Assembly (NCBI GenBank): GCA_963797555.1
Contig: CAWCPV010000013.1
Location: 1-64,000, forward strand
Reading direction: 5' to 3'
Origin: an uncultured Gammaproteobacteria bacterium
GTDB taxonomy: Bacteria; Pseudomonadota; Gammaproteobacteria; CAWCPV01
Length of the DNA: 64,000 bases
The notes under the pieces were generated by a model. It was not told the origin of the DNA and ran no database searches. It saw only the letters and a program-made list of their open reading frames with translations. The position numbers and the translations under genes were made by a program. Positions 41,005 through 63,779 of this stretch are shown here, one piece after another. Numbering within the stretch: the first letter of the stretch is position 1; each line of letters starts with the position of its first letter.

Positions 41005-44000
41005 TCACAGCGCGCGATTGCCCTGTAATAATCTCATCAGCCATTTGTAAATCCAGCACAAAAAGATTTTTAGCATATCAGGACAATATGGCCAAAACGT
41101 CTTTGCTTTTCCGGTTTTCTTGAAGCCTACGCCAGACACGCTGACACCGGGTGTGGCGAGAGGCTTGAAGTCGCTATCACGCGTACGACCACTTGTGTCG
41201 GTGATGCGGATTGCCGCGGCCGCCTTAAGACCGGCCCGCCTCAAACTAAAGGACTGTGTCGTGCCCGCCGATTTTCCGAGCAGTATCCAAGAATCGCACA
41301 GGCCCCCATGCGCTGCCTCCACGGTATAGGATCGCAGATCCATGTCTGGCCGCACGAAAACGGTGACATCGTCGTCGCCCTGGGCGAGAATCGCTTCCTT
41401 CCGGACGCCGCCCGTCAGCGACCCACGCGCGCCCAGCGACACAAATGTATCCGGCGGCTTCTTTGAGATGTCCCCGAGCGCAGCCTCCGGATTCGCATGC
41501 TGGTTGGCGCCTTGGGCCGCTTCGGCGCCCTTCAGGAATTGGACGACCTTATCCGCCCAGCGCAATTGGCCCACCGGCGGCAGAGTCTGCTGTTGAATCA
41601 CCTGGCCGCCGAAGGACACGCCCAGGACAGGCGTCGCGCCGGGAGCAAACGTCAGTTGGCGGGTGTAGGTGCCATCGAGGTTGCTGACGAGCGGACCGGC
41701 GAAGTTGCCGTCCTGCACGGTCAAGTCAAAGCCGGGGGAGGTGCCCGGATCGACCAGCAACACGTTGCGAAAGCGATCGCCCGGAGCGACCACCACCTGC
41801 GCAGTGCCCGGTTGTCCGAACCGCACGTCAAGGAGGGTGAAAGCCGGATCCGGCCGTACCAAAACGTTGGTGGTGATCTTTGCCTCTCGCCGGAAGCTGC
41901 TTCCATCCTCGGTCACACCGGTGGCCGTAACGTAGAAGGTGCGCATCTCCGGCATGGAGGTGTCCGTAATCGTAGCGCGGTATGTACCGACGCCTCCCGA
42001 ATCGATCATAGCCGTGTTGCTTTGGACTTTGCCGCCCGGGAAGAACATGCCTGCCAGTGCGGCTCCCACTGTCTTGATCAAGAGCGGCGTGCTGTCCCCT
42101 TTTACTTTCTCGGCGGCCTGCTTTAACGCACTAGCCGGCACGTTTAGCCCGGCGAGCCAGTTGGCCTCCGATTGCTGGGGCGCGGTCGTGGACAGGATTA
42201 CCCCGGCGCCCTTGATGGGGCTGCCAGCAGCAGTAAGGCGTGCTGAAACCTGGATCGGATCGCCTGCGTAGAATACCGGCTGATCCAGCCGTAACTCCAT
42301 ACGCAGATCCGAATCCACGATGATGTCATAATCGTAATTTTCCAGGCCCGTTTCACTGTCGCTCAGCTCGGGACTGAGAACACGCAGGGTCCACGTGCCA
42401 TAACGCGGCCGGGTTGGATCGGCGGCGTTCCGCAGGAAGTCCGGACCGACCATATACAGTTGCGATCGATCGCCGCTGGTGAAAGTGACGTCAGGAAACA
42501 CCCCCTGTGCCGCAGCTTCCGGAGTTATTACGTCACAGGCGGGTGTTGTCAGCTCCAAGCGCATTCGTTGTGGGTCGGGCGTGTTCCAGGCCAAAACAAA
42601 GGCTGCCTTGTGATCGTATTTCGTTATCAAGGCAAAGTGGCGCGCCTCGGGCTGGCCGGCATGAAACACCGCCGACGGGTCGCCCGGCGATGACCCCGCC
42701 GTAACCCCGGCTTTGATCGCAGTACGGAACGCGGCTGCGATTTGCGTGCCGGTTAGGTGAGCGTCGTCAACCCGTTGATTCTGCGGCTGGCCGCTCTGCA
42801 GTGAACCGTCCACTAGATGTTGAAGCAATGTCGGATCGACGTTCGAAGCCCCAGTGACTCCATAGCCGATGGCAAACAGTGAGATATTCTGGTCCGCTAT
42901 CGAACTGCCTGCCGCTGCCGTGCCATTTGGAGGGAGGATGAACTCCGTCGGCTGATGGGTGCCGATATTTTGGGCACCATCCGTCATCAACACGAGCCAG
43001 CGCCGGTTCGCCTGCACACTGACGCTGTCGGTGGCGAAGTAGGTGGGAGGCTGGGCAAAGACACGATTGATGCCATCTCCCATCGGCGTGCCCGCAAAAA
43101 ACGGATTCACCCCCGCTATGGCCGTCTGCGCTGTCCCGATACCCGTCGCATCAATGTTGATGGGAGGATTAACCAAGTCAAACGTCGTCGGATCGGCGAA
43201 ATTTGTTTCCGGGAACCGAGCAACGCTGAACTTGCCTCGGTCCTGCCCAAATCCCAAGAGCAGCGGCAGGAAGTTGTTGTTGACCGCGTCCACCAGTTCG
43301 CCCCAGCGCGAGGTCGGCTGCGGTGGCGGCGGCAGCGGCAGAGGTGTGCCGTCGGGGAGCCAACTCATGCTGCCGGAATCGTCCAGCAGCATCACTACCT
43401 CCAAAGCTTGCGTCCTCGCCAATACCTTTAGTTGGTTGTTGTGTCCCACGGTGGTCCCTGCATTGGCATCCGCGGGCGTAATATTGACGGTGGCATTGGC
43501 GGTCGTCCCCCCATCTGGCGGCGGCGGTGCGGCCGGCGCGGTGAAAGTGACGGTCAACGGCTGCGAGTCGCCAGGATTCAACAAGCCGGGCACCGCTCCC
43601 AGGGCAAAGCTTCCGGGCAACGGGGGGTTCACGCTGTTGACGGTGAACGGGGCTGTGCCTCGGTTCGTGATCTGCACGCTTTCGCCCTTCGTTCCGTTGA
43701 TCAATACATCCCAGATGAGGGTGGTCGGCTGCAACGGGTCGATCAAGGGCGGAGTGGGCTCCACATCGATCCAGGGCTGGGCGGTGTTCGTTTCAGTGCC
43801 CGATACCACCCAGATGTAATCGCGTGCCGCCGCATCGTTATTGGTGATGGTGATTGTCCAGGTGTGCGATACGAACGCAACAAACGGGACGAAATCGATC
43901 GAGACGATGAACACGTTGTTGAAGCCAGGATCAGGCAGAATATTTGCGTCGGCTATGTAGGTTGCGCCCGAATAGATTGGCTGCGGTGTCCCGGTTAGAA

Positions 44001-44238
44001 TCGGAGAAGCTGGCCCGCCATCCGCCTGCAGGACGACACCGGGCATGCCCGCGCCGACCAGAGCGCCAACAGGATTCGACACCCCTATGCGGATGTACAT
44101 GAAGTTGTCGCCGTTTATGGAACCGACGGTTGAAGCCAGTTGCTCGATCGTTTTGGGTGCGCTTGTCGCGCCGGCTAGCACGTTGAGGGGTACGTTTGGG
44201 GGTGCGTATGTTAGATCTGGATATACATGCGGGTCCAT
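41005..44238 (-). CDS. large vWA-domain protein with Ig-like domains (last gene of the eCIS cluster)
   Basis: MIDAS motif LLDDSGSMS..GTPMGDG..LMTDG; preceding ITNRGTAPFTV..LNPGDSQPLTVTF (ASH/choice-of-anchor-D-like); no obvious signal peptide. Confidence 0.85.
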   Translation of the reverse strand: MDPHVYPDLTYAPPNVPLNVLAGATSAPKTIEQLASTVGSINGDNFMYIRIGVSNPVGALVGAGMPGVVLQADGGPASPILTGTPQPIYSGATYIADANILPDPGFNNVFIVSIDFVPFVAFVSHTWTITITNNDAAARDYIWVVSGTETNTAQPWIDVEPTPPLIDPLQPTTLIWDVLINGTKGESVQITNRGTAPFTVNSVNPPLPGSFALGAVPGLLNPGDSQPLTVTFTAPAAPPPPDGGTTANATVNITPADANAGTTVGHNNQLKVLARTQALEVVMLLDDSGSMSWLPDGTPLPLPPPPQPTSRWGELVDAVNNNFLPLLLGFGQDRGKFSVARFPETNFADPTTFDLVNPPINIDATGIGTAQTAIAGVNPFFAGTPMGDGINRVFAQPPTYFATDSVSVQANRRWLVLMTDGAQNIGTHQPTEFILPPNGTAAAGSSIADQNISLFAIGYGVTGASNVDPTLLQHLVDGSLQSGQPQNQRVDDAHLTGTQIAAAFRTAIKAGVTAGSSPGDPSAVFHAGQPEARHFALITKYDHKAAFVLAWNTPDPQRMRLELTTPACDVITPEAAAQGVFPDVTFTSGDRSQLYMVGPDFLRNAADPTRPRYGTWTLRVLSPELSDSETGLENYDYDIIVDSDLRMELRLDQPVFYAGDPIQVSARLTAAGSPIKGAGVILSTTAPQQSEANWLAGLNVPASALKQAAEKVKGDSTPLLIKTVGAALAGMFFPGGKVQSNTAMIDSGGVGTYRATITDTSMPEMRTFYVTATGVTEDGSSFRREAKITTNVLVRPDPAFTLLDVRFGQPGTAQVVVAPGDRFRNVLLVDPGTSPGFDLTVQDGNFAGPLVSNLDGTYTRQLTFAPGATPVLGVSFGGQVIQQQTLPPVGQLRWADKVVQFLKGAEAAQGANQHANPEAALGDISKKPPDTFVSLGARGSLTGGVRKEAILAQGDDDVTVFVRPDMDLRSYTVEAAHGGLCDSWILLGKSAGTTQSFSLRRAGLKAAAAIRITDTSGRTRDSDFKPLATPGVSVSGVGFKKTGKAKTFWPYCPDMLKIFLCWIYKWLMRLLQGNRAL

Positions 44239-44257
44239 AATACTAAGCCTCGTGAGT

Positions 44258-45796
44258 TTAGGGTCCTGTAACGGTGAATGTGTCCGTGCTGACAGCCGAA
44301 CCGCCGGCCGTGGTGACGGTAATGTTGACGCCTAGGCTGCCTCCCGCGGCCACCATGTTGGGCGGTACCTGAACCGCGATCTGGGTTGCCGACGGCGCGC
44401 CGCTCAACACGGCGTTCGTGTTCCCGAACTTCACTGTAACCGGCGGGAAGTTGAAATTCTGGCCGAATAGCGTGATCAACGCGTTGCCTATGCCGCTCCT
44501 CGGTATAAACTGCGGCGAGGGAAGGACGGCGAAGGACGGCGCCGGGATGGTCACTTCCGCCGTGAAGTTATCGTCGCTGACCACGGTGCCTGCGGCGGTG
44601 CGCACCGTGATCCTGACGTCGGCGCTGGTGCTGCCGGCTGGCACCAGGCCAGCAGGCACGGGAACCACGATCTGGTTGGCCGTCGGCGTACCGGACGGCG
44701 TGGCCGTCACTGTTCCGAACTGCACTTGCAAACCGCCGGCATTGAAATTGAATCCGTTGATCGTGACCAGAGTGCCCGGCGTGCCGTGGATCGGACTGAA
44801 CTGGCCGCCCGGGTCGGCAAACGCCGGGTTTGGCAATACGGTGAAAGTGTCGTCGCTGACATCCGCGCCGCCGGCATTACGCACCGTGAGCTTGACGCCG
44901 GCTGGGGCGCCTCCTGGGGTCAGGCCAGATGGGACTTTCACTACGACCTGCGTGGGCGAGGGGGCTGCCACAATTGTTGCCGGCATATTGCCGAACAGTA
45001 CCTGGAGCGAACCGACGTTGAAGTTGGTGCCGAAGAGAGTGATCTGCTGGTTGATGACTCCACTCCTGGGCATGAACTGGGGGGTGGGTAGGTTGACGAA
45101 GGCCGGCAGTAGCACGAGTTTCTCCAGCAGACTCAGACGCCGCTCCATATCCGAAACGGTTAGGCGGGATTGGCGGAGGTCGGTGATCATGGCTGCGGTA
45201 ATGGTGTCGCTCCCTCGCGGCCGCTGCAACTGCGCCAGCGGATAATAGACGTGACCGGCAGGAGCAGCGGGAACCGGAACGCCTTCGGCAACCACCACGA
45301 CCCAGACCGGTTTCAACCGGACGGAGGTCTCGATCCCCACGTCCACGCCGTTGTTCAGATCGGAATCGACCGTACTGTCTACTTCGGTGAAAGAAACGTC
45401 GAGGTAGACGATGTCCGTGCGAGGATCCGGCTGCGCGGCCGTGGGAGTTGTCAGGGCGGGCACGCCCGCCTGGGCCTTATAGGTTGTGTTCGCCGGGATG
45501 GCGACTTCGATTCCGCCCACCATGCAGGTGCCCGGGCTTGCAGCTCCAGCCGCAATAACGAAATCCTGGGGCGCTGAGGCTGCGAGCGCTCGTATGGCGA
45601 ATCCGTCCACCCCGGCCGGGATGCCGTTTCCGATGTAGCGGGTAAACACCGAGCGCACGGTAGCGTTGATCAGGTCATGCAGCAAATTCAGATCCCGGTC
45701 CAGCAGCGGCACGCCTTGCTGGATATGGAGGCCCACATACCCTTTCTGCTGGTTCGCAACGAGAACATCTAGCGGCGACTTCGAGTAATCACTCAT
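44258..45796 (-). CDS. putative tail fibre: DUF6519-like N-terminus plus three IPT/TIG repeats
   Basis: Y.GLHIQQGVPLLDRDLN...YLDV...EV...D...ETSVR N-terminus; three P.F...QF.P..G...IT..G.NFN...V.FG repeats. Confidence 0.8.
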   Translation of the reverse strand: MSDYSKSPLDVLVANQQKGYVGLHIQQGVPLLDRDLNLLHDLINATVRSVFTRYIGNGIPAGVDGFAIRALAASAPQDFVIAAGAASPGTCMVGGIEVAIPANTTYKAQAGVPALTTPTAAQPDPRTDIVYLDVSFTEVDSTVDSDLNNGVDVGIETSVRLKPVWVVVVAEGVPVPAAPAGHVYYPLAQLQRPRGSDTITAAMITDLRQSRLTVSDMERRLSLLEKLVLLPAFVNLPTPQFMPRSGVINQQITLFGTNFNVGSLQVLFGNMPATIVAAPSPTQVVVKVPSGLTPGGAPAGVKLTVRNAGGADVSDDTFTVLPNPAFADPGGQFSPIHGTPGTLVTINGFNFNAGGLQVQFGTVTATPSGTPTANQIVVPVPAGLVPAGSTSADVRITVRTAAGTVVSDDNFTAEVTIPAPSFAVLPSPQFIPRSGIGNALITLFGQNFNFPPVTVKFGNTNAVLSGAPSATQIAVQVPPNMVAAGGSLGVNITVTTAGGSAVSTDTFTVTGP

Positions 45797-45817
45797 AACC
45801 CGCTCCTTTCCGCAACC

Positions 45818-47845
45818 TTATGTTTTAATAAAAACCGCTCTTTCTGTGATCGGCAGGAATTCTACCAAGACATTGGCGAGTCTGGAGAGCTTCGCGCTGA
45901 TCTGGTCCGGGTCATCGGTGCCCGTGCCCAGGAATAGTCCAATCGTGTCGCGGGCGATGCGGTCTTCGTTGGTTCGCAACCCGTTATCCCCTGCGTCGTA
46001 GGTATAAGCCAGAAAATCTTCAAACTTTCCCCGCAGCGCGAGCTTCGCGGTGTTGCGGGTGTCAGCCGTGGTTGCGCCGCAGTACCGCCCATCCAGTGTT
46101 TGCGTGGCGCCGTAAACCGTGCTGGTGTAAGCCAGGCTTTCATTCGAGCGGTACACCAGCAAAGTGCCCGCGCCGGTATCCACGGCCAGAGGTGCGCGGT
46201 TGGCGTAGGGCGTATTCGTGAGTTGCTGGGCCGCGCCCCAGGCCAGCGTGCCGATGTCCAAGGGGTCATGCCAGAGCGTCCAGCCGCCGCTCCGGGTGGA
46301 ACTGTAGAAGAGTTCGATGCCACCGTCGGGCGCCACCAGCGGGGACGGTTCGCGCTCGTGGTCGCCGGGCGCGTTCTTGGGGAGCGTGCTAACCCCTGAC
46401 CAGTCCGCCGCGGCCGGGTCGAGCCCCTGCTTGATCCGGTACGCGACAGTCCAGCGGCTCTGGCCGGGAGGCCCCCCCGCTTCGTGCCTGGCCCAGAACA
46501 CCCAGAGCCGCTGGCTGGGGCTGGTCGGATGGAACAGGACGTTGAGGTCGTTTTCGACGCGCGGGTCCTGGCCGCCGTCCGCCGGGAAGTCGAGCGCGGC
46601 CGGCAACCAGTTGGCGCCGTCGTGCCGGTTGTACTTGATTCCCCAGCCGGCAGCGGTTTGTTCCAGCCAGAAAAGCCAAAGCCCGCCGGCATTGTCCACG
46701 GCCGCCGCAGGCATGCGGCGCGCGGTGGCGGAATCGCTGAACACGGCGGCGGACGACCAGAGGCCGGCTGTGCGTGTACGAAAATTGATTCGCCACATCC
46801 GCTCGCCGGGCGGCTGGTTCGGGTCGTAGCTTTCCCAGAAAAGCCACAGACTGCTTCCTTGCAGCGCGGCGGCAGGGTGCATGTCGATGCCCGGTTGATC
46901 CACCACGGGCGCGCTTGGCTGCCATTGGCCGTCAGCAAACCGCTTGGTCCAGATGTCCCAGCCGTGGCGGCGATACGTATGGTAGAAGAGCGAGATTGAC
47001 CCATCGCTTTCGCGAATGCCGGTGGCACGTCCGTTGTAAACGAAATTCAGGGACGCCAGCGCCCGAGCGCCAAAGTTTCCGCCCACAGGCCGCAGGGCGG
47101 ACCATAGGTTCAACCGCTCGGGCTGGTTGGTGCGGGCCACGTTGTGGACGAATTCCTTGGTTTGGCTCTCCCAGTTGGTGATGCGCTTGACCGTGGCCTC
47201 CACGGTGGGGATGACGCCGACGGTCTGGTAGATCGACGGCGCGAAGCGAATCTCGTTGCGCTGCGCCCCCACTTCCAGGCTGTAATCCGTCTGCCAGCCG
47301 ATCCATTGCGCCAGCAGTGGCAGCAGGCTCCCCTCCAAGCGGGCCACGTCGTGCAAGCCCAGCGTCGCACGTGCCAGACTATAGATTTGGTCGAACTGAG
47401 AGCCCGGCAAATCCAGAAACCGGCGCAACTGCCCCTTGGTCCGGTCCTTAGGTGCCACAGCGGCATCCGAGGTAGGCTCCTGTGCTTCGTCGTAGCGATG
47501 GTACAGGGCGGGCAGCAGCGCATACATCTGCCCCGCGAAATCGTAAGGCGCGGTGGCCATGGCAGAGACGCGGTTGTGCGGGTCGATGTCATACTGGGGC
47601 GGGTCGTCGTGGAAAGCAAACAGGCCATAGTAGTAGACCGTCTCGCCTTGCAAGCCGAGGTCGGAAGCCGCGGCCAGGCCGGTGCCGTGCGCCACCACCA
47701 CGCCGTCGTCAGGTGCGAGCGGATGCGTGTCCTCGCGGCGTACCACGCGCACGCCGGGGAAAGCGTTGGGAGCCGGGTTGGTCCAGCTTAAGTCGATCCG
47801 GTTGCCGCCGGGATGGGCGAGGGCCGCGATATCGAGGAGGCGCAT
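45818..47845 (-). CDS. baseplate wedge / phage tail protein (P2 gpI / Afp12-like) with Fn3-like N-terminus and Trp-rich propeller-like insert
   Basis: MYALLPALY.R.D...QLRRFL...LLPLLAQWIGW...R..I..A..IY...G core; C-terminal L.EFLP...R.VF. Confidence 0.75.
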   Translation of the reverse strand: MRLLDIAALAHPGGNRIDLSWTNPAPNAFPGVRVVRREDTHPLAPDDGVVVAHGTGLAAASDLGLQGETVYYYGLFAFHDDPPQYDIDPHNRVSAMATAPYDFAGQMYALLPALYHRYDEAQEPTSDAAVAPKDRTKGQLRRFLDLPGSQFDQIYSLARATLGLHDVARLEGSLLPLLAQWIGWQTDYSLEVGAQRNEIRFAPSIYQTVGVIPTVEATVKRITNWESQTKEFVHNVARTNQPERLNLWSALRPVGGNFGARALASLNFVYNGRATGIRESDGSISLFYHTYRRHGWDIWTKRFADGQWQPSAPVVDQPGIDMHPAAALQGSSLWLFWESYDPNQPPGERMWRINFRTRTAGLWSSAAVFSDSATARRMPAAAVDNAGGLWLFWLEQTAAGWGIKYNRHDGANWLPAALDFPADGGQDPRVENDLNVLFHPTSPSQRLWVFWARHEAGGPPGQSRWTVAYRIKQGLDPAAADWSGVSTLPKNAPGDHEREPSPLVAPDGGIELFYSSTRSGGWTLWHDPLDIGTLAWGAAQQLTNTPYANRAPLAVDTGAGTLLVYRSNESLAYTSTVYGATQTLDGRYCGATTADTRNTAKLALRGKFEDFLAYTYDAGDNGLRTNEDRIARDTIGLFLGTGTDDPDQISAKLSRLANVLVEFLPITERAVFIKT

Positions 47846-49419: not shown

Positions 49420-49788
49420 TCATCTGAACTGAATGCGAACTGCTTGCCGCGAAAGATCCTTGCGGCTAATGTAAGCCACCTCGATGGTGACGGTTTCGTC
49501 CACTGCTGTCACATTTACCCCGTTCACCACGAGTTGGTCGCCTAGCCAGCGGGTCAGCGCGGCGCCTACCGTAAACTCCATCGCCGCTCCCAGGATGGTG
49601 TTGGCGGGGTCGAAAACCAGGTTGAAAAGACCACACCCAAAGTCAGGGTGGTTCACCCGCTCGCCCGGAGTCGTGAACAACACCTGGATAATTTTCCCCT
49701 GAAGATCGACATCCTCGTCGGGATCCGGAATGATCGCACCCCCCGGCGAGACGGCAAAAGGGAAGCCAAAACCTGTCGCCATCCGCAT
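49420..49788 (-). CDS. gpW/gp25-family baseplate protein (Afp9-like)
   Basis: FPF...I.QVLFTTPGERVNHPDFGCGL..LVF. Confidence 0.92.
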   Translation of the reverse strand: MRMATGFGFPFAVSPGGAIIPDPDEDVDLQGKIIQVLFTTPGERVNHPDFGCGLFNLVFDPANTILGAAMEFTVGAALTRWLGDQLVVNGVNVTAVDETVTIEVAYISRKDLSRQAVRIQFR

Positions 49789-49803: not shown

Positions 49804-50298
49804 CTACGCTGAACAGCTCACGAAACTCTGGCCTGCGGCGGCCACAGTCGAGTTCGCTTTGCCCCCTGTGCCGTCGCAGGTGTCGATCTTGTCGCCATCC
49901 AAAAGCACCTTGACCCCGCCAATCGTCAGCAGAGCGCTGCCGGCAGCGGCGTTCGGCACGCCGATGCCGATCACGTCCTTAATTGACAGGGTGAGCGGGA
50001 TCGGCACGGGCGTTGCTGGCGTGAAACCGCTGCCGGCCGGCCCGGAATGCCCGCCCGCCGGCGGAGCCGCCTCGCCGGGATTCAGCGAACTCTTGCTCGT
50101 CAGCAGTGCGACTGGCTTGCCGCCGATCTTGACGAACGTGCTCAAACCGTCCGTCATCCCGCCCTTGTACACAAAACTGCCGATTCCCGTGTAGGGCACG
50201 GTTGGCGGCGGCGGCGCGGGATTGGTGGCGTTGCCCATCACGTTGTGCTTGTCCGTCCCCTGCACGGCGTCGCCCTGTATCACGACCTTCTTGCCCAT
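49804..50298 (-). CDS. PAAR-like spike tip protein
   Basis: Repeated V.IGG.PVA / LTIGG.KV motifs, candidate His/Cys metal ligands; lies between gp5 and gp25. Confidence 0.7.
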   Translation of the reverse strand: MGKKVVIQGDAVQGTDKHNVMGNATNPAPPPPTVPYTGIGSFVYKGGMTDGLSTFVKIGGKPVALLTSKSSLNPGEAAPPAGGHSGPAGSGFTPATPVPIPLTLSIKDVIGIGVPNAAAGSALLTIGGVKVLLDGDKIDTCDGTGGKANSTVAAAGQSFVSCSA

Positions 50299-50301: not shown

Positions 50302-51048
50302 TCACCCCTGCTGCAAATCAATCGACGCGCCAACCACCGTCACACTCTGCCCACTGGCATCAATCTTCAGCGGCACTTTTGCTGTAATCGTGAAGGCGCT
50401 GCTCGACATGTCGATGCTGTTCCCCGTGGCGTCGGTCAGCTTGATTCCGTCCGACGTCATCTCAATTGTGTTGCTGTTCGTATCCTGAACCTTGATTCCG
50501 TCCGATGTAAACTGGATGGTATTCGCATTGGCATCCGTGACCGTGATTCCGTTCTGGTCCATGGCCAGGAAGTGCCCCTGGCTGCCCTCCCGAAGCAGGA
50601 TCATCTCGGAGCCGTCGGCGTCTTCGAACTGTAGCGTGTGCCCCTTGGCCGTCTTGACGATCTTCGCTGTCGGAGGGTCTTGAACGTTGCTCTCCTCGGA
50701 TCCGTCGCTGCCCTTGTTCGGCTTGGGCAATTCGCTTTCGAAGTTGGGTTGGCTCCAGAATGTGCCGACCCACAAGGGGAACTCCAAGTCGCCTTCTTCG
50801 AACTCCGTCCACACGCCAGCGCCGATGTCAGGAATAAACAGGAATCCCTGGTCGGCGGCCCCGCCGTAAGGCGCGCAGGGCGTGGCCCATCCGGTGACCA
50901 CATCGCCGCCCAGGACGCTAGGCACTTTCAGCTTCAGTCGGCCGAGCTTCAGCGGATCCTGATTATCGACCACGATTCCGCGGTACTTGCCATAAAACCG
51001 GTGCTCAATCTTTTCCGCCAGATCCGCGACTATACGTTCCAGATTCAT
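50302..51048 (-). CDS. phage baseplate assembly protein V / gp5-like spike
   Basis: FYGKYRGIVVDNQDP...GRLK..VP...W..PC.PY.G...GF..IP.IG..VW.EFE.GD..FP.W.G OB fold; beta-repeat C-terminus. Confidence 0.9.
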   Translation of the reverse strand: MNLERIVADLAEKIEHRFYGKYRGIVVDNQDPLKLGRLKLKVPSVLGGDVVTGWATPCAPYGGAADQGFLFIPDIGAGVWTEFEEGDLEFPLWVGTFWSQPNFESELPKPNKGSDGSEESNVQDPPTAKIVKTAKGHTLQFEDADGSEMILLREGSQGHFLAMDQNGITVTDANANTIQFTSDGIKVQDTNSNTIEMTSDGIKLTDATGNSIDMSSSAFTITAKVPLKIDASGQSVTVVGASIDLQQG

Positions 51049-53513: not shown

Positions 53514-53948
53514 TCACTTGACTATCTCGCTCACAGAGCGGAAATGTAGCCTATTGGACTCGTGGTGTCCGGTTATGACGCCATATGTGACAGTGTTCTC
53601 ATCGGGCTCAATCTCTAGAATAGCACCAATGTCGATTGCGGTTTGCCGGTCGCTGCCGCACTTACTCAGATCCCATGTTCCGTCGTTCAGATCGAAGTGT
53701 TGCAGGTAAGCCTCTCCTGGTTGAATCAAGATTAAATCCGGTATGTTGACAGTCCACCTTTTAGGCATCCTTTTTATGGAGCACCGCTTTCCGTTCTGCG
53801 GCGATACCTGAAAGTAAACGGAATAGTAACCAAAGGAGTAGCTTGGACTCCATATCGAGACAACCGATTGTGATCGGTTAGCGATTGCCAGGTTGAACAC
53901 CTTCTCGATATAAGTGAGATTAAGATCCATAGGAAGCATTTGCGTCAC
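53514..53948 (-). CDS. AT-rich hypothetical protein, candidate immunity/partner of the DUF4157 protein
   Basis: GTG start overlaps the upstream TGA; visibly more AT-rich than its neighbours. Confidence 0.6.
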   Translation of the reverse strand: MTQMLPMDLNLTYIEKVFNLAIANRSQSVVSIWSPSYSFGYYSVYFQVSPQNGKRCSIKRMPKRWTVNIPDLILIQPGEAYLQHFDLNDGTWDLSKCGSDRQTAIDIGAILEIEPDENTVTYGVITGHHESNRLHFRSVSEIVK

Positions 53949-55585
53949 CAGTTAATCGTGATGGTGTCGGTACCACCGATTTGTCGATTCTCGTTACAGA
54001 CGTCAACCACAGAAATCCTGAATCGCATTTGTCCCGTATCCGCGGCAAACATATGTGGATCGTCATGGCCTTCAAACGTCGCGCCGGAAGCTTGAGCCAG
54101 ATTGCCCGCCGCATTCACGTATCGATTTCCAGCCACCCCTCCTCCGAATCCCGTCCTATGGCCGTATCGCTGGGCATTCGCAGCATCTCTATCTTCGATA
54201 AAGGTATCCACCGGTTGCGCCGCCGGGAAGCCGGCATGCGGCACTGGATTCCCCGGGGGGGTCGCCGCGAAGCTGGCTGCCATAGCGGCATCCCACGAGA
54301 TTTCCTGGCGCACCTCACAACAGGACGCGAAAATCCCGTTATCGGGATCGTGGTCGAACGTCGCCGCGAGGGCGAAAGGCACATGCCTTCCCGCTCCCGC
54401 TGGGGCGGTTACTACACCGTGGGGCGTGTAAGTGGGGCCTGTTCTGACCCTTCCCCTTCGCACTAAGCTCGCCAGTGTTTTGGATTCAGCAGACAACCCT
54501 TCCGCCCTCAATTCCCGAAACAACGGGGCCGCCGTGTCAGGCCCGAGTTTGCCATTCTGCGCTAGGTTGTTCGCGGCCTGCCACCTTGCCACCGCGTTCA
54601 CGAAATCCTCATCAATCACCGCCGGATCCTTGCCAATTCCCAGGACGTCTCGCAGAGTCCCGATAAGCGCAGCATCCGCAGCGCCAATTTTTATCGTATT
54701 GTACTGGATGGCCGCCTGCACCTGGGCGGCGGTCAGAGATCCCGCATCGGCCGTTGGATTAGGCGGTTCAATAGCGAAGTCCGCCTGGATGGATGGAACG
54801 CTGGTTTGCCTCTCGGAGTCGTCCCCGTCCTCCGGCGTTCTGACCGACTCCCGGTCGCGTTCCTTGTTGTCATCGGTCTCATCCGCCAACTTGCGCTGCA
54901 ACCCGCCGCCCTGCTGTAGCACGTGCGTCAACTCGTGAGCCAGCAGTTCCCGACCGGAGTGACTATCCGGATTATATTCTCCCTGGCGGAAAAAGATACC
55001 CTGTCCCCTGGTAAAGGCGCGCGCATTGAGAGTACGATTGAGGTCGTCGGCGGAGGCTCCAGTATGCACACGGACACCGCTGAAGTCGTAGCCGAAGCGA
55101 GGTTCAAAAAAGGCGCGAGTCGCTCCGGGCAGCGGCTGGCCGCTTCCAATGGACTGAATTCGGCTCTCTACTTCCGGAGACACAGCAGCGGCGTGGTCAG
55201 TTGCCGCCCGTCTCTGAATAACGTTTACTCCCCATTGCTGCCCCGGTGCCGCCCGTCGTTGCAGGGAAGGTTCCGGCATCCGCATCACCAGCCCGGCCAC
55301 GCGGTCCGCTTCTTGTTCGAAGGAATCACCGGCGGATCCAATCGTCAGTTTGGCCTGTACGTGGCGTGGCGGGCAGTTCCGGCGTCCACCCATGCTGCAG
55401 CCGTTGCGGTCGTGCGTCTCCTGGCCCGGCCCGCAGCAGGCAGTCGCGGTCTGCAGATAGCTGTTACCTAGACCGCGTTGGAGAGACTGTATGGCGTCGG
55501 ATGTTTGACTGGGCGCTGGCTCAGCGCAGTGCTTCACACTTGGCGCCACGTCCAGGGCAACTTCTTTGCTTCGAGATGCAAACAT
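53945..55585 (-). CDS. DUF4157 (eCIS core domain) protein with peptidoglycan-binding-like segment and unknown C-terminal domain; putative effector
   Basis: QAKLTIG...D.FEQEADRVA; GQPLP..TRAFFEPRFG.DFS.VRVH...ARAFT.G..IFF..G...ELLAHELTHVLQQ; AVARWQ..NNL..NGKLGPDT. Confidence 0.9.
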   Translation of the reverse strand: MFASRSKEVALDVAPSVKHCAEPAPSQTSDAIQSLQRGLGNSYLQTATACCGPGQETHDRNGCSMGGRRNCPPRHVQAKLTIGSAGDSFEQEADRVAGLVMRMPEPSLQRRAAPGQQWGVNVIQRRAATDHAAAVSPEVESRIQSIGSGQPLPGATRAFFEPRFGYDFSGVRVHTGASADDLNRTLNARAFTRGQGIFFRQGEYNPDSHSGRELLAHELTHVLQQGGGLQRKLADETDDNKERDRESVRTPEDGDDSERQTSVPSIQADFAIEPPNPTADAGSLTAAQVQAAIQYNTIKIGAADAALIGTLRDVLGIGKDPAVIDEDFVNAVARWQAANNLAQNGKLGPDTAAPLFRELRAEGLSAESKTLASLVRRGRVRTGPTYTPHGVVTAPAGAGRHVPFALAATFDHDPDNGIFASCCEVRQEISWDAAMAASFAATPPGNPVPHAGFPAAQPVDTFIEDRDAANAQRYGHRTGFGGGVAGNRYVNAAGNLAQASGATFEGHDDPHMFAADTGQMRFRISVVDVCNENRQIGGTDTITINW

Positions 55586-55613: not shown

Positions 55614-57815
55614 TTACTGCTTGAGCCCGCTGATAGAGTGCCGCTCCTTCCATAGCTTGCCGATCTTTTCGAACTCCTGCCGCGCCCCACGCAGAATATG
55701 CTCCATTTCAATCAGACCGCCGTCTCGCGCAGCCGAAAAGGCCGAGTTCAGAACGATATTCTTGATGTTTCCCCCCGCCACCTGAAGATCCCGCGCAAGA
55801 ATCCGGCAATCAACCTCCGACGATACCGGCGCTTCCGCCGGGAAATGCGTCTGCCAAATCCGCAAGCGATTGGCCTCATTAGGAAACGGAAACTCGACGA
55901 TGAAGCGAATGCGGCGCGCGAATGCTTCGTCCATGTTCTCCCTGAGATTCGTCGCCAGAATCACCATGCCTTCGTACTCCTCCATCTTCTGCAGCAGGTA
56001 ACTGGTCTCGATGTTGGCGTAGCGGTCGTGCGCGTCGCTCACTTCGGTCCGCTTGCCGAATAGGGCGTCTGCCTCGTCGAAGAAGAGGATGGCGTTACTG
56101 GTTTCGGCTTCGGCGAAAATGCGGGAGAGGTTCTTCTCGGTCTCGCCAATATATTTGCTGACTACGCTCGACAGATCGACCTTGTACAGATCCAGTTCCA
56201 GTTCGCGGGCCAGAACCTCGGCCGCCATGGTTTTACCGGTGCCCGAGGGCCCGGTGAATAGCACGCTCAAGCCCTTCCCATGGCCCAGCTTCTTCCCAAA
56301 GCCCCAGGTTCCGAAGACGCGGTATTGATGCCGGACCTGGCTGCAGATCTCGCGCAAGTGGGCCAACTTGTCCTCGGGCAGCACGATGTCGTCCCACCCG
56401 TAATGCGGCTCGATCTTGACCGCGAGTTCGCGGAGCTTGTGATTAGACTGCGCCCGACAAGCGGCGGCGAGATCGGAGGCCGATAAGGCGCGCGGCTTCG
56501 ATACAGTAAGGCAGACATTTTGCGCCAGTTCGACCGCCGCCCGAATCTGCGCGGGCGTCAACCGGAATTGTGCCGCCAGTTGGGCGGCCCAAGCCGCCGC
56601 CTCGGCCGTTTGGCCAGCCAGGCAGCGCTCCCACGCGACCGCGCGCGCGGGAACATCGGGCAGCGGCAGCTCCACCGAGTGAAAAAGGCAGTCCGTAAAC
56701 GCCTGTTTGGGAGTCCATGGCGTCGCGGCGCTCAGAAAAACCAGCCAGCCGAATTCCGAGATGGCCGCTTGCAGGGCTTTGAGCAGCGGACGCGCGGCGT
56801 CCCGCAAGAGTACCTCGGCATTTTCCAGGTAAAGAAAGGCCTGCTGCAGCAGCGCTTCTCGAAATGCCAGGCGCAGGAGATCCTCCGCTTCCGATCCCCG
56901 GGCGAGCAATAGTTCCGCGTCTAGGCTCAACAAAAAGCTGTGGAGCCGCCGACAGATGTGCAGCGCGAGTTCGCGCTTGCCGACACCCTGCGGGCCGTGC
57001 AGATGAAGGACCAGCTTGCGCTTGTCCCTGTTCTCCGGAGCCAGGTGGCGGCCAACCAGGTTCTCCACGCCGGCAACGATGAAGGAGTCCATCGGCGGCT
57101 GGTCCGCATGACCGCTGGGTTGCTGGAACTGGGCGTGTCCCGCCAGCCGGGCATCGATCTGGCTGCCGCCCAACAAAAACTGGCAGATCCGGGTGTCCAA
57201 TGCGAGTAGCTGAGCAAGACCGCTGGATCCGGACGGGCTGTTAGAATCATTTACCTTCCGGAGCAGACCGGAGCGCAATAGGGGTGCCGAGTCGCAGAGA
57301 AGCCTTCGGGCCTCCCACTGTTGAGCCTCCGAACCGCACAGCAGCTCCAGCACCAAATCCACGCTGGGCCGCTTGCGCGTGAGGTCGTCCTGTAAATAGG
57401 CGTACAGCCGGTCATACTTGCGTCGCAGTTCGGGGGCGAGACAAATGACGACCACCTCCCGTTCAAAAGCCGACAGGCCAAACAGATGGCCCAGTTGAGC
57501 CAGCGCGGGGAACATACCCTCCTTCAGGCTATGGGCAACCCGGCCGTCGATCTCCGCCCTCAACCGCTCCAGTCCGGCACGCATTTCCAGGACTTCGGCA
57601 TCGCCGGCTTTGGGCGTCCCGCCCTCATCGAGCAGCCACTCGACCTCCGCCGGTGTGATGTAAACTGTCCGCGAAGCCTGCGCCTCGGGCACGGCCTGGT
57701 TCTGCAAGGCCAATGTCCTGGTCCTTAGCCGGATCAGCAGATCGAGCCAGCGCAACTCGTCTTCCAGATGCTCGTAGTTGTTACCGTAAGGACGCATTTC
57801 CGATCCCGGGCTCAT
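55614..57815 (-). CDS. eCIS AAA+ ATPase (Afp15/Pvc15-like)
   Basis: GPSGTGKT, VSKYIGETEKNL, FFDEADALFGKR, DRYAN.E.SYLLQ; N-terminal winged-helix-like region with YAYLQDD. Confidence 0.93.
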   Translation of the reverse strand: MSPGSEMRPYGNNYEHLEDELRWLDLLIRLRTRTLALQNQAVPEAQASRTVYITPAEVEWLLDEGGTPKAGDAEVLEMRAGLERLRAEIDGRVAHSLKEGMFPALAQLGHLFGLSAFEREVVVICLAPELRRKYDRLYAYLQDDLTRKRPSVDLVLELLCGSEAQQWEARRLLCDSAPLLRSGLLRKVNDSNSPSGSSGLAQLLALDTRICQFLLGGSQIDARLAGHAQFQQPSGHADQPPMDSFIVAGVENLVGRHLAPENRDKRKLVLHLHGPQGVGKRELALHICRRLHSFLLSLDAELLLARGSEAEDLLRLAFREALLQQAFLYLENAEVLLRDAARPLLKALQAAISEFGWLVFLSAATPWTPKQAFTDCLFHSVELPLPDVPARAVAWERCLAGQTAEAAAWAAQLAAQFRLTPAQIRAAVELAQNVCLTVSKPRALSASDLAAACRAQSNHKLRELAVKIEPHYGWDDIVLPEDKLAHLREICSQVRHQYRVFGTWGFGKKLGHGKGLSVLFTGPSGTGKTMAAEVLARELELDLYKVDLSSVVSKYIGETEKNLSRIFAEAETSNAILFFDEADALFGKRTEVSDAHDRYANIETSYLLQKMEEYEGMVILATNLRENMDEAFARRIRFIVEFPFPNEANRLRIWQTHFPAEAPVSSEVDCRILARDLQVAGGNIKNIVLNSAFSAARDGGLIEMEHILRGARQEFEKIGKLWKERHSISGLKQ

Positions 57816-58651
57816 GGCATCACCTCGAACAGAAACGTCCTGCGAAACAGGCGCGAGACATCCACACGAATGTCATAAAAGCCTGGCAACGTGCCCGCCG
57901 GAATCGTGGCATTGAAGGTATCGCCAGCCAGGGCCTGCTGGTCGAGCACTGTCTGGTCGCCCACCAAGACAGTAACCTTCCATCCGGCCAGATTCTCGCC
58001 CGTGAAAGTGACCGCGGTGCCGGCAGGCCCGCTGGCGGGTGTCATGTCCAGCACGGCCGGCGGGCTGAAGGGCGCCCGCACGCCGGGAACGCCGATGGTC
58101 CGCACCCGCTTTGGCAGCGGCATCTCTCCCGCCGGCGACATGTCCAGTTGCACGGTCAAGACTTGATAGCGGACCGACAGGCGAAAAGGCTGTGCGAAGG
58201 TGCTCCAAAGACGGCTGAGTTCTTCCGGGTCCAAGGCGTTGTATACAATTCTGAATTCCTCCCTGGCGGTTTTCAGGTCGGTTTCCAGATACTGCTGTGG
58301 GATGACGGAATTCTCGTAGAACACGCGCATGGCCTCACCGAGGATCTCGTGCGCCGTCGAGTTGCCGGTCTGCGGATCGTTGCGCGCGTATGGCGTCACC
58401 AGGTAGTACAGGTTGAGCGACAAGGGCGCGGGCGCCAGCTGATTCGAATTCCCCGGTTTCAACGACCAATCCTGGTTTTTCAGGAAGGTGTTTTCCTCGA
58501 TCTTGTAGAGAAACAGATTGATTCGTTGATCGCCGCCGGCCTCGTCGGGCGCCAGAATCGTCACCGGCACCGCCGGGTTCAACTGCATTTCTCCCACCAA
58601 GAGATTGCGCAGCGATGTGCTGACCAAGCCCAAGGCAGTGGACACGCTCAC
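57812..58651 (-). CDS. DUF4255 / Pvc16-like sheath terminator (cap) with C-terminal IPT/TIG domain
   Basis: INLFLY.I.EN..LKN...L.L.YLVT.Y...LS.LWS.F..P.RLSV.Y.V; C-terminal P.SGPAGT.VTFTG.NL; GTGA overlap with the upstream gene. Confidence 0.88.
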   Translation of the reverse strand: MSVSTALGLVSTSLRNLLVGEMQLNPAVPVTILAPDEAGGDQRINLFLYKIEENTFLKNQDWSLKPGNSNQLAPAPLSLNLYYLVTPYARNDPQTGNSTAHEILGEAMRVFYENSVIPQQYLETDLKTAREEFRIVYNALDPEELSRLWSTFAQPFRLSVRYQVLTVQLDMSPAGEMPLPKRVRTIGVPGVRAPFSPPAVLDMTPASGPAGTAVTFTGENLAGWKVTVLVGDQTVLDQQALAGDTFNATIPAGTLPGFYDIRVDVSRLFRRTFLFEVMP

Positions 58652-59943
58652 CGCCGGATCCTCACGCTCAAGTGAGTTAGATGCCTGCGCTCCCAGAAGG
58701 CGATGGAAGTGGCCATGACGGCGTGGGCGGAATCCTGCTTGACCACAATCACGGAAGCTTGTGTCGACGGCGCGGCGGGCGCATGGTTGGAAGGGAAGTC
58801 CGCCGAACCTTGCTGGCGGGGCTCGGACGACCTGCGCATGCCACTTCCGGAGGTCTGCTCTGGTCGGCGCACTGTAGGGAAGCTTCGTGCCAACGACGCG
58901 GCATTCCGGCCCTGCGGATCGGGCACTTGGTGCCGGCGTGCAGATTGCGCAAGGGTTGGCGCCGCTGGGCACTTGGGCAGGGGCTCGCCTGAAATGGGTT
59001 GTGGATTCTCGGCCGCCGCCAGATGCGGTTCCCGCGCGGCCTGATGCGGTGCCGTGCGACGCAGTGGCGGGATGGCGACGGTGCTTCCGTCCGGGATCCG
59101 TAGGGATGGCGTATCTATCACCTTTGGACACGACTCCTTGGCATTTGCGTGCAAGTCCACAGGCGCGGCCTCACTCAAGGAGATCCCGCCTCGTGTCGCC
59201 GTAAGGCGCTGCCGTTCGTGGAACCCCGGGACACCCGGAATGATCACGTCCTGCTGGGTCAGCGAAACTCCATCGATCCCCCCGGCTCCGATTGTGTCGG
59301 CATCTTTTGCGAAACCTTTGGGGGCATCTAAGTCTCCAAAGGGAGCAGAAAATGGGCGACGGGCTGTCGCACCCGACGGACCGCCCTCGTCCCGCATCGG
59401 CCCCGGCGTGTATTCCTCTTCGCTGCGCACTGCGCCACGGCTCCCGCCGCGGCCGGACGCCCCGTCGGAAGCCGGAGGTCTAGTCTCCGCCCGCGTCGGC
59501 GCCGCAGACGTTGGCAAAATCTCTGGCCCTAGGGACGCTCCGCGCTCATCGGCCTCGCTTCGGTCTCCTTGCCCCTTCGCCGGAGCCGCGCGCTGGTTCG
59601 CTGCGCGCGGGTTGGATGCCCGTTCCCCCTCGTCCGGCATGCCGCGCCCGCGAGGCATCGTCCCATAAGGCGAAGAGCGCGTTTTTTCTTCCATCATGTA
59701 AGCTGGGCCGCGTGGATGGCCCGCCAGGAATTCATCCGAAAAGTCGAATTCACCTGTGAATCGCGGGCGGACGTACCCGAAGTCGGCAACCGGAATCGGT
59801 TTGAAGAAGTTCATCTCGACATCGCTGGACTCGGGAAGGCCGAGCAGCGCCCGAACACGGCAGCGGTAGCGAAACGGCCGGGCGCCGTCCGAGAGCACCC
59901 CGTACAGATAAGCTTTCGCTGCGCCCTCTGTTTTACTCGCCAT
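58648..59943 (-). CDS. low-complexity, probably disordered protein with ordered termini
   Basis: Pro/Ala/Ser/Gly/Arg-rich interior; overlaps both neighbours; ends AFWERRHL.HL.VR..R. Confidence 0.65.
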   Translation of the reverse strand: MASKTEGAAKAYLYGVLSDGARPFRYRCRVRALLGLPESSDVEMNFFKPIPVADFGYVRPRFTGEFDFSDEFLAGHPRGPAYMMEEKTRSSPYGTMPRGRGMPDEGERASNPRAANQRAAPAKGQGDRSEADERGASLGPEILPTSAAPTRAETRPPASDGASGRGGSRGAVRSEEEYTPGPMRDEGGPSGATARRPFSAPFGDLDAPKGFAKDADTIGAGGIDGVSLTQQDVIIPGVPGFHERQRLTATRGGISLSEAAPVDLHANAKESCPKVIDTPSLRIPDGSTVAIPPLRRTAPHQAAREPHLAAAENPQPISGEPLPKCPAAPTLAQSARRHQVPDPQGRNAASLARSFPTVRRPEQTSGSGMRRSSEPRQQGSADFPSNHAPAAPSTQASVIVVKQDSAHAVMATSIAFWERRHLTHLSVRIRR

Positions 59944-60829
59944 TATTCAGCCTCTCAATTTCATCCGCGAGCAGTTCAACGTACATCTGCCGCTTGTTCC
60001 GCGGCATCGCCATGATTTCATGCTCGCTCCAATGATAGTGGTAAGCCAAATAATGCACCTGGCGATACAGCAATTCGCTGTCGGTGCGTAGTTCGCCGAA
60101 AAAAAAGTGGTGCACGTCGAACGGCACCACGAAGGCGCGACCGCATTCCGAACAGTTGGTTTCGATGTTCAACTCGATTTTTGGCGTCACCCGCTCCATC
60201 TCAGCTTCGATTTCCGCGCGTGCGAGAGGCGGCAGTGCCGCCACGTGCTCGAAGTCTGGTGGGGACAGTGGGCCGATACGCTGGATCGTGCGAGCCAGGA
60301 GCAGGGTCAAGGACTTTGCTTCGTTTTCTGCGAGCAAGGCCGAAAGCGCCTCTTGGTCGGCCCCATTGGGCAAGCGGAAGTTGATCTCCCGCCGTGTCAC
60401 CTCCTCTTCAGCGCAGGCGCGGGGCGAAAGGGTCATGGTGTAGAACGGTGCCCGCTCGACGGCTTCCTCGACAGGCACGTCGTCGATGCCGAACTTCATG
60501 GACACCCGCCGCCCACAGTCGGCCCACGGACAGAAGACATCGGCGCGAACCATGTCACCGAACGTGAGCTGGCGCAACTTGAGCAAGAGGTACTGCCGGT
60601 CAGCGACCAGGAATTGACGGGCAACATCCTCAGTGACCGGGCTGATGCCTCCCAGGCGCCGCACACCGCGGCTCAAGACCGCGCTAACCAGAGACGCTGT
60701 TTCCCCCCCCCGAGCCTGGACCAGCAGTTCCTCCTCGCGCCCGGTCAGCACGGCCAGCTCAAACTCGCGGTGCAACGCGCCAGCCGCGTCCCAGTAGCCG
60801 CCTGGGAGCATACCTGTCATTTCTACCAT
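59933..60829 (-). CDS. tail assembly chaperone / T4 gp26-like protein with fused DUF6760-like C-terminus
   Basis: LPGGY.D..G..HREF.L..LTG..EE; L...DR.YLLL.LR..TFG; CxxxxC and CSECG; C-terminal LY..V.YLAYHYHWS..EIM.M....R. Confidence 0.8.
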   Translation of the reverse strand: MVEMTGMLPGGYWDAAGALHREFELAVLTGREEELLVQARGGETASLVSAVLSRGVRRLGGISPVTEDVARQFLVADRQYLLLKLRQLTFGDMVRADVFCPWADCGRRVSMKFGIDDVPVEEAVERAPFYTMTLSPRACAEEEVTRREINFRLPNGADQEALSALLAENEAKSLTLLLARTIQRIGPLSPPDFEHVAALPPLARAEIEAEMERVTPKIELNIETNCSECGRAFVVPFDVHHFFFGELRTDSELLYRQVHYLAYHYHWSEHEIMAMPRNKRQMYVELLADEIERLNNGE

Positions 60830-60966: not shown

Positions 60967-61467
60967 TTAGGACTCCTTGGGTTCGGTCACCGAAGTGTCA
61001 CGCACCCAGCCCTCGTTCTCCAGCTTTATGGTGGTTATCATCACGCCATTGCCGGACGCGTCCAGTTGCGGGAGTGCTTGGTATTCCGAAACCCAACAGC
61101 GAAACAGGTTGTACGCCAACACCTTTACACCCTGGGTATTGTAAACCTCGATGCTGATATCCTTGCGAAAGGACGCCAGCGAACTGGCGGCATCGCCCTG
61201 GAAGTTATTTACTTTGTTAGCCCACTGCTCGAACGTTGTATCGTGGGTGACGCCGGCTTCGAGCGTGATGGCGTCATACTTGGTTTTCCCGGGAATCTGG
61301 TGCGGGCCGCTGGAGTCGCCACCCTCGTACCACGGCGTCACCTCGGTGGTCCGCTTCAGGGCGCCGCATTTACTCAGGCCGGCCACGTATTGGCCATCCC
61401 ACTTGAGCTTGAATTTAAAGCCAAGATAGGGGTCGAATCGGGTGCTATTTACGGTGAATTTGGGCAT
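60967..61467 (-). CDS. tail tube protein (T4 gp19 / Afp1-like)
   Basis: RFDPY..FKF...YEGGD......PGKTKY..ITLE.GVT.D..FE.W...RKDI.I...CWVSEYQ..P.LDA. Confidence 0.93.
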   Translation of the reverse strand: MPKFTVNSTRFDPYLGFKFKLKWDGQYVAGLSKCGALKRTTEVTPWYEGGDSSGPHQIPGKTKYDAITLEAGVTHDTTFEQWANKVNNFQGDAASSLASFRKDISIEVYNTQGVKVLAYNLFRCWVSEYQALPQLDASGNGVMITTIKLENEGWVRDTSVTEPKES

Positions 61468-61497: not shown

Positions 61498-63438
<1,941 letters not shown>

Positions 63439-63476
63439 GGTCTTGCTCCTTTCATATGTGTTCGAGCGCAGTCCGC

Positions 63477-63779
63477 CTAATCGGCGGCTGGGTCAACTTT
63501 GGTCTTGCGTCCGCGCGGACGCGAGTCCCCCTCGTCCTGGCGAGCTGGCTCGGCTATTCCGCCTTCAGTCTCGGTCGGCTTGGCCGCATCGCTCTCTTCT
63601 CCAGCGCGCTCGACAGTAATTGCACGTTGGCATAGCAGCTTGTCAATTTTGGGGTTAGCTTTCAACTCAACATCATGGAACACAGCCGAGATCTCCCCGG
63701 GGGATAAGCGCAAATTCGTCCCACTATTCAGGGGTACGAAAATTGGCCTTGGAGTCAAGTTTCTAATAGCGACGGACAT
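63477..63779 (-). CDS. small hypothetical protein upstream of the sheath gene
   Basis: Strong AAGGAG RBS before ATG 63779; IRNLT.RP..V.LNSG..L.L.PG N-terminus. Confidence 0.7.
   Translation of the reverse strand: MSVAIRNLTPRPIFVPLNSGTNLRLSPGEISAVFHDVELKANPKIDKLLCQRAITVERAGEESDAAKPTETEGGIAEPARQDEGDSRPRGRKTKVDPAAD

Follow-up and report, generated by a model that had tools for sequence, protein, structure and literature searches.

Extracellular contractile injection systems (eCIS) share a set of core parts, namely Afp1/5, 2/3/4, 7, 8, 9, 11, 15 and 16 (Chen et al. 2019, PMC6899500). In that survey, subtype IIc is recognised by two Afp11 genes and by the IIc-specific conserved genes afpIIc1-3; IIa also has two Afp11 genes, IIb has no PAAR and IId has an unsplit VgrG. 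VWA domains are already known in eCIS (accessible parts of PMC8213781 and PMC12923769), and VWA, TIG and Ig domains have been reported in eCIS fibres, which in eBAP3/5 are encoded by the gene after baseplate J and a Tail_P2_I gene (PMC12923769). The locus described here lies at 41005-63779 of a 64,000-nucleotide stretch (the window; contig CAWCPV010000013.1, here C13:1-64000) from an uncultured Gammaproteobacteria bacterium, whose genome (G000) comprises 5.35 Mb on 20 contigs and is 84.6% complete. The LpxC of this genome scores highest against Pseudomonas entries (about 470 bits, with about 411 for the group that follows), which makes a gammaproteobacterial host likely. It is a 19-gene cluster and very probably a IIc-related contractile injection system (CIS). 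Judged from its sequence, it appears to be a side branch of lineage II next to IIc; its baseplate is simpler, a vWA/Ig protein is added and the tip of its cargo is uncharacterised.

Placement of the locus relative to subtype IIc

Phylogenies of the sheath, tube, baseplate J and ATPase proteins were built under LG+G4 with no mixture model. Subtype labels were taken from Table S6 of Chen et al., which covers plasmid loci, and the curated loci represented Ia, Ib, IIa (three), IIc (two) and IId (three). Two proxy loci, which are not curated records, stood for IIb, and five of the six unlabelled plasmid loci fetched were included in the trees. The curated IIc loci of Mycobacterium sp. JS623 and Novosphingobium SA1, together with four unlabelled loci of the same layout, are referred to as the six IIc-type loci. 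Syntenic relatives of the locus are found in an Acidobacteriaceae metagenome-assembled genome (MAG; G031) and on metagenome contig L018. Four long-branch paralogues and one fragment were left out of 26 sheaths; Afp, the Ib protein and one fragment were left out of 31 baseplate J proteins; the partial L018 copy was omitted from the ATPase tree and two over-long open reading frames (ORFs) from the tube tree.

The locus and G031 are sister to the six IIc-type sheaths (100/99 for the eight rows, 97/92 for the six alone), and the same eight-row clade is recovered with the tube at 98/99. The baseplate J proteins of the three syntenic loci form a clade of their own (100/100), joined to both IIc paralogue clades at 100/99, with the two curated IIc loci as the reference for this Afp11 clade. 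The genes from sheath to baseplate J follow the IIc order, including the DUF4157 gene between ATPase and CIS_tube. Afp8 is split into gp27 and gp5 genes and a PAAR gene is present, as expected of IIc, the PAAR match being under cut-off. By Chen's rule the locus is not a IIc member, because it has one Afp11 gene and not two: baseplate J is encoded once here, in G031 and in L018, and twice in all six IIc-type loci. Neither the clade membership nor the content rules of IIa, IIb and IId were found, IIb being judged by its two proxies. The preliminary description had assigned the cluster to the Afp/PVC/MAC type; the sheath, tube and baseplate J trees place it in lineage II, by IIc, and exclude lineage I (Afp/PVC/MAC).

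In the best baseplate J tree the single protein is sister to both IIc paralogues at only 61/37, and the alternative arrangements have p-values of 0.44 and 0.31 in the approximately unbiased (AU) test. The single gene may have originated before the duplication; neither alternative is rejected.

The closest locus is that of G031, where 17 of the 19 genes occur in the same order with blocks of 69-80% nucleotide identity. L018 carries the same 11 consecutive genes in order, from ATPase to vWA; a further two metagenome hits were either of insufficient length or limited to part of the protein. The ratio of nonsynonymous to synonymous rates (dN/dS) against G031 is 0.05-0.21 in 15 of 17 genes and higher in the first gene (0.27) and the low-complexity gene (0.39); the cluster has evolved under purifying selection since diverging from the Acidobacteriaceae copy. 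The terminal branch leading to the locus is short in all trees. This layout is undescribed in the literature searched; members in dbeCIS/eCIStem may already stand under IIc or eBAP3.

All eight core parts of Chen et al. were recognised with Pfam and NCBIfam, the Afp7/LysM match being weak, and an Afp11 baseplate J and an eCIS-type tube, the pair that marks the superfamily, stand in one cluster. Several small parts, among them CIS_tube, the Phage_GPD hub and PAAR, score under their cut-offs. All 19 ORFs are read from the minus strand and are uninterrupted over their whole length, with intergenic gaps of -11 to +137 nt when the spike is started at 51048 and Pvc16 at 58651. The co-orientation, close spacing and lack of obvious frameshifts claimed earlier were therefore confirmed, the count of 17 ORFs being corrected to 19 by ORF recount. 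We infer that the locus is functional. Its features, in gene order, are as follows.

63477..63779, minus: small first gene, 100 aa, no Pfam match; conserved upstream of the sheath, with the G031 ortholog in the same place (phmmer 2e-11; dN/dS 0.27)
61498..63438, minus: contractile sheath (Afp2/3/4-like), 646 aa; PF04984 and PF17482; sister to IIc-type sheaths
60967..61467, minus: tail tube (Afp1/5-like, gp19), 166 aa; PF06841, 5e-40; in the IIc clade
59933..60829, minus: T4_baseplate and DUF6760 protein, likely tail-assembly chaperone; PF12322, PF20546; same position in IIc loci
58648..59943, minus: low-complexity protein of 431 aa with conserved ends, possibly a tape-measure-like spacer; no Pfam match; G031 ortholog 30% identical (dN/dS 0.39)
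57812..58651, minus: Pvc16/DUF4255 cap-terminator with C-terminal TIG domain; PF14065, 2.7e-37, and PF01833
55614..57815, minus: Afp15-like AAA+ ATPase (winged-helix domain, WHD, and AAA); PF22977 and PF00004; Walker A GPSGTGKT, Walker B ILFFDE
53945..55585, minus: DUF4157 cargo candidate (eCIS_core and PG_binding_1), 546 aa; Pfam, structure model and fold searches
53514..53930, minus, ORF extendable to 53948: partner of 138 aa, candidate immunity protein or chaperone; homolog beside a cargo homolog; low third-position GC
52759..53481, minus: CIS_tube (tube initiator-like); PF19266, 5e-5, under cut-off; 85% identical in G031
52173..52754, minus: LysM-like baseplate protein (Afp7/gp53-like); weak LysM match; homologs in IIc-type loci
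51045..52172, minus: hub, gp27 half of the split VgrG/Afp8; PF05954 (Phage_GPD, under cut-off), N-part of NF033848
50302..51048, minus: spike, gp5 half of the split VgrG/Afp8, with OB fold; PF04717, 1.7e-21
49804..50298, minus: PAAR-like spike tip; PF05488, E=0.0036, under cut-off; position, and orthologs at 58-63%
49420..49788, minus: gp25 wedge protein; PF04965
47848..49416, minus: single baseplate J (Afp11), 522 aa; PF04865; TIGR02243 over cut-off; tree
45818..47845, minus: Tail_P2_I-like fibre adaptor, 675 aa; TIGR02242, 5.9e-7, under cut-off; homolog scans
44258..45796, minus: likely tail fibre, with DUF6519/DUF4815-like anchor and three IPT/TIG domains; PF01833 three times; atlas and profile matches (below)
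41005..44238, minus: Ig-chain/vWA protein, 1077 aa, adhesin-like; homologs, metal site and structure model (below)

Distal genes and the DUF4157 cargo candidate

The 675-aa adaptor matches TIGR02242 under cut-off in all three syntenic loci. Among 11 homologs scanned, four match Tail_P2_I (three over cut-off) and two match BNR_2 weakly; the family comprises 314 clusters at E<=1e-30. The adaptor likely has an FN3-like N-terminus and possibly a BNR propeller, and a sequence relative of it in the PDB was not found.

The protein encoded in the next slot (44258-45796) contains three TIG domains here and two in each relative. Its N-terminus resembles DUF4815/DUF6519 clusters at atlas values of 0.84-0.89, which, being <0.9, are leads only; a direct Pfam DUF6519 hit was not found. 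The fibre profile of the three loci matches the fibre-slot protein of the IIc-type locus of Streptomyces NBC_01643 (1.6e-6), and this Streptomyces protein matches a DUF6519 remnant beyond the locus. As the arrangement is exactly that of the eBAP3/5 fibres in the accessible text of PMC12923769, the TIG protein is most likely the tail fibre. The notion of a particle devoid of fibre was dismissed on the resemblance to the DUF6519 anchor and the NBC_01643 profile match. Of the proposal that Ig/vWA-rich targeting parts replace a classical fibre, the richness holds, with TIG domains in the fibre gene and an Ig chain with vWA in the last gene; the replacement does not, as the TIG protein occupies the fibre slot, behind a Tail_P2_I-like gene, and has a DUF6519/DUF4815-like N-terminus.

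The last gene encodes the vWA protein, for which 44 hits were obtained, one of them a record that is shorter than the query and 99% identical to it. Of 39 aligned members, 18 match Pfam VWA, and the residues of the metal ion-dependent adhesion site (MIDAS), D286, S288, S290, T384 and D420, are invariant in all 39. In the structure model (pLDDT 86) a chain of beta-sandwiches surrounds a Rossmann-type vWA domain and the C-terminal end forms an amphipathic helix (1055-1073). Foldseek returned architecture-level rows only, the pilus tip adhesins PitA and SpaC included (TMq <=0.16), and a whole-fold match was not found. Among 36 homologs, one has a hydrophobic N-terminus and two have a hydrophobic C-terminus; because such termini are rare, the cytoplasm is the probable site of synthesis of the protein, as it is for the particle. 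A membrane-anchored vWA protein of the CisA kind was rejected on the C-terminal count. The gene follows the fibre gene, and does not lie by the ATPase, in all three loci; the literature searched gave no account of a vWA gene that is separate, conserved and placed behind a TIG fibre. A particle-borne adhesin is one assignment for it, to which we give slightly less than even weight. Three genomes of one family encode stand-alone proteins of ~300 aa (L024-L026) that match the C-terminal domain of the vWA protein only (profile ~860-1020).

By Pfam and the model, the cargo candidate consists of a low-confidence N-terminus, a DUF4157 domain with HELTH, peptidoglycan (PG)-binding-like helices and an Ig-like tip (aa 376-546), the tip being a confidently modelled beta-sandwich. 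The AlgoCIS cargo shares this layout, having a disordered N-terminus, DUF4157 and a variable C-terminal domain, and its loading needs the N-terminus and the ATPase (accessible part of 10.64898/2026.05.27.728243). The C-terminal half gave 86 hits, self included, and all 71 of them that were aligned share Q427, E464 and R473. In one RHS fusion (P0122) the same tip follows the RHS core and DPYG motif. This is the usual position of toxins.

A homolog of the 138-aa partner (NTV01_01275) adjoins a cargo homolog (NTV01_01270) on a 5017-bp contig of a Bacteroidia MAG. GC at third codon positions (GC3) is 0.63 for the cargo gene and 0.57 for the partner gene, against 0.73 for the locus. In G031 another gene occupies the cargo slot and the DUF4157 gene is located after the vWA gene; the different slot gene and the displaced DUF4157 gene support the view that cargo and partner are a swappable cassette, which is likely. 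The effector-partner pair suggested in the preliminary description is thus plausible, with the tip at the RHS toxin position and the partner homolog adjoining in one other genome; whether the two are toxin and immunity protein is, in our estimate, evenly balanced. The G031 slot gene (L022:17470-18645, plus strand) has an LQRxLGN motif like that of DUF4157-cargo N-termini, has no DUF4157 and no Pfam match, and is a candidate minimal cargo. That its product shares the tip fold is unsupported: the A2 profile matched the N-terminal motif only (iE 4.3).

Proposed particle action, rival readings and genomic setting

Gene set, gene order, phylogeny, cross-phylum conservation and purifying selection were computed here; the mechanism we infer from known eCIS. 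The 19 genes probably build a lineage-II contractile injection particle on the IIc sister branch. One baseplate J protein would likely serve the particle wedges, the tube would polymerise on the hub/spike/PAAR baseplate, and the sheath would wrap it and Pvc16 cap it. The AAA+ ATPase may thread the cargo into the tube via the disordered N-terminus, as with AlgoCIS. As a clear membrane anchor is missing from every locus protein (no clear transmembrane segment; highest 19-residue hydropathy 1.71), the particle would exit by cell lysis. The fibre on its Tail_P2_I-like adaptor and the metal-binding vWA protein would then bind a surface ligand, and sheath contraction would drive the spike into the target. 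The Ig-like tip may be the active part of the cargo, most likely against bacteria, and the partner would neutralise it in the producer. Extracellular action on other cells is favoured on balance. A bolder form of this reading is doubtful as a whole: an undescribed cross-phylum sister lineage of IIc with a pre-duplication single-gp6 baseplate, a two-step targeting by TIG fibre and docked metal-dependent vWA adhesin, and a polymorphic toxin of a new kind, in which inserted loops of an Ig-fold enzyme would carry the active site (Q427, E464, R473 and nearby His/Asp/Cys), a site that would be shared with RHS carriers.

Several observations weigh against an active particle of this kind. The ATPase falls outside the four-member IIc ATPase clade, so that the check by sheath and ATPase phylogenies proposed earlier gave a split result, with the sheath beside IIc at 100/99 and the ATPase not. 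The synteny is observed in three loci only, and dN/dS mirrors a long history and not present activity. Lysis genes were not recognised in or beside the locus (Pfam scans of the window and of right-flank ORFs), and a sigma-70-like promoter was not found upstream. In our own reading of its sequence the G031 copy has a sigma-54-type activator upstream; this and the small winged helix-turn-helix (wHTH) genes preceding that copy were not recognised here, in what is a weak test for small proteins. Fold searches with the whole 546-aa model matched the tip to generic Ig folds and to nothing enzyme-like (best Z 7.9), and Foldseek returned no hit for it at E<=0.001. The partner has two non-self homologs against 85 for the cargo, one of the two being shown beside a cargo homolog, and it lacks a hydrophobic leader, a poor fit to a periplasmic target. 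Lastly, among the lineage-II systems that have been characterised, action within or upon the producing cell is frequent (S. davawensis, PMC11126660; S. coelicolor).

A rival reading is a IIc-related CIS that, as reported for Streptomyces systems, acts inside or on its producer and serves development, programmed death or the release of DNA, its Ig/vWA parts being the tether to the producer's envelope or biofilm. The unrecognised lysis cassette, the terminal amphipathic helix of the vWA protein and the PG-binding-like domain of the cargo are in its favour, as is the S. davawensis CIS, whose DUF4157 effector, encoded next to the tube-initiator and spike genes, affects sporulation of its own host (PMC11126660, in part). 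However, the locus proteins have no clear transmembrane segment, a fibre-type gene has been retained with a variable number of TIG domains, and a swappable cargo with a partner gene fits competition. We regard action on the producer as unlikely.

Less probable still is an ordinary IIc-related eCIS in which the vWA protein serves the AAA+ ATPase as an adaptor for assembly or loading, or is a dispensable accessory. MoxR ATPases have vWA partners, the MIDAS is invariant and an export signal was not found. The vWA family (44 hits) looks far smaller than the tail-adaptor family, the two counts coming from different databases and methods, and many related loci may for this reason lack the vWA protein. 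However, the gene stands behind the fibre and away from the ATPase in every locus, the protein has a long Ig chain with PitA and SpaC among its best Foldseek rows (architecture only), and the ATPase is of the Afp15/CDC48 kind and not MoxR.

Capsid, terminase and tssJLM genes just beyond 64000 would have told against an eCIS; none of these families was found among the 29 ORFs scanned in the next 18 kb (C13 63.9-81.9 kb), which comprise insertion sequences (IS), DUF6519 fragments and housekeeping genes. Capsid, terminase and portal genes were likewise not found among the scanned left-side ORFs; no genome-wide terminase search was made. VipB and DotU/TssL were not found in the 84.6%-complete genome, the control search being positive in E. 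coli. Identity as a prophage or type VI secretion system was dropped, with no capsid or terminase family among the scanned flanking ORFs and no VipB or TssL found in the incomplete genome.

The locus has a GC content of 60.7% against 64.6% for the genome (3 of 226 windows are as low) and a GC3 of 0.73 against 0.80 in eight core genes. Among 30 same-class genomes, the comparison genomes being no closer than class, seven carry sheaths, all distant (<=39% identity), and the full-length vWA protein is present in 1 of 401 genomes of the phylum, its own, with 21 others matching single domains. For these reasons the locus was likely gained by horizontal transfer. No part of it is repeated elsewhere in the genome and it therefore holds no multi-copy IS. 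The preliminary description had stressed an IS-free locus of atypical composition, and both observations stand; as a significant signal the former fails. Since 2089 of 4915 same-size windows of the genome are also free of 3-copy repeats, with 66 of 197 inter-repeat gaps as long as the locus, being IS-free says little about function and was set aside as weak evidence for it.

The left-flank IS are fragmentary. Past the window, the right flank has multi-copy IS630 and IS66-type elements (C13:65730-66900 and 71103-73794), many full-length and >99% identical, the IS66-type element carrying a DruA-like ORF, with many near-identical copies in the genome; the copy number is a sign of recent expansion. 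Remains of a standard IIc-type tail gene, interrupted by IS (matches at 68635-74441, C13, plus strand), lie on the opposite strand about 5 kb beyond the sheath, next to a DUF6519 fibre remnant in two frames (74461-75865, plus). In the window, an ordinary dcw cluster with lpxC, secA and argJ (11978-36628, minus) lies directly left of the island, and a truncated sigma-54 activator fragment (36710-37363, plus) between mraZ and the left IS cluster. A further CIS cluster at C3:27100-39300 (minus) has sheath, tube, VgrG-like gene, gp25 and one baseplate J and groups with the IId-labelled Rhodovulum locus and with the Paracoccus locus; a gene at C3:39905-41824 (plus) has an N-terminus resembling the distal gene of that cluster. 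A second DUF4157 gene is located at C2:265033-265221 (plus), in a 588-aa open frame near the contig end, away from both CIS loci. Two DNA sequencing runs (peat, soil) contain short pieces of the locus, most <95% alike and none spanning it; no RNA sequencing run was found to contain it. Purine-rich, Shine-Dalgarno-like stretches precede several ORFs, sheath and tube included.

A recently silenced passenger, transferred in, deprived of regulator or promoter by IS activity and yet to decay, might be suspected from the IS on both flanks, the IS-broken tail and DUF6519 fibre genes nearby, the unrecognised regulator and promoter and the commonness of repeat-free 22.8-kb stretches, but it is very improbable given 19 of 19 intact ORFs, the Shine-Dalgarno-like stretches and the short terminal branch in all trees.

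Comparison with known systems

Lineage II makes up the greater part of the eCIS family and has been studied less; little is known about how its members target cells or about what they target. A compact, unbroken locus with a close syntenic copy in another phylum makes three questions testable: the origin of the two-gene IIc baseplate, the capacity of a stand-alone vWA protein to give a contractile particle a second binding module, and the role of the DUF4157/RHS tip domain, which is widespread and uncharacterised. Unless the vWA or tip results hold, the mechanism known for eCIS is unchanged.

With Afp, PVC, MAC and AlgoCIS (lineage I) the locus shares the core parts, the cargo layout and the ATPase-dependent loading model (10.64898/2026.05.27.728243, in its accessible part). 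These systems belong to the other lineage in the trees and have a single VgrG and Afp12/13/14, and pADAP has holin and lysozyme genes, none of which is seen here. The Streptomyces davawensis CIS with Tme is likewise part of a cross-phylum clade with conserved synteny and a DUF4157 effector encoded beside the tube-initiator and spike genes (PMC11126660, in part). Tme is a tape-measure-like endonuclease of 2247 aa, whereas the cargo here has 546 aa, an Ig-like tip and a partner gene.

The eBAP3 and eBAP5 fibres (accessible text of PMC12923769) also follow baseplate J and a Tail_P2_I-like gene, with an anchor resembling DUF6519 and Ig-type tips, and their data contain TIG and VWA (the words occur 7 and 14 times in one of the supplementary files). 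In the eBAP set VWA is a domain within fibres, mainly of eBAP4, whereas here it belongs to a separate conserved gene in which an anchor domain was undetected, and the fibre anchor gives no Pfam DUF6519 hit. From the IIc loci (JS623 pMYCSM01, Novosphingobium resinovorum pSA1), which have two baseplate J proteins of ~670-960 aa, the locus differs in its single one of 522 aa, in a tail adaptor for which no sequence match to those of IIc was detected, in a short TIG-tipped fibre, in the extra vWA/Ig gene and in the position of its ATPase. It shares with them the sheath, tube and baseplate J clade, the gene order, the split Afp8, the PAAR-like gene and the DUF4157 slot.

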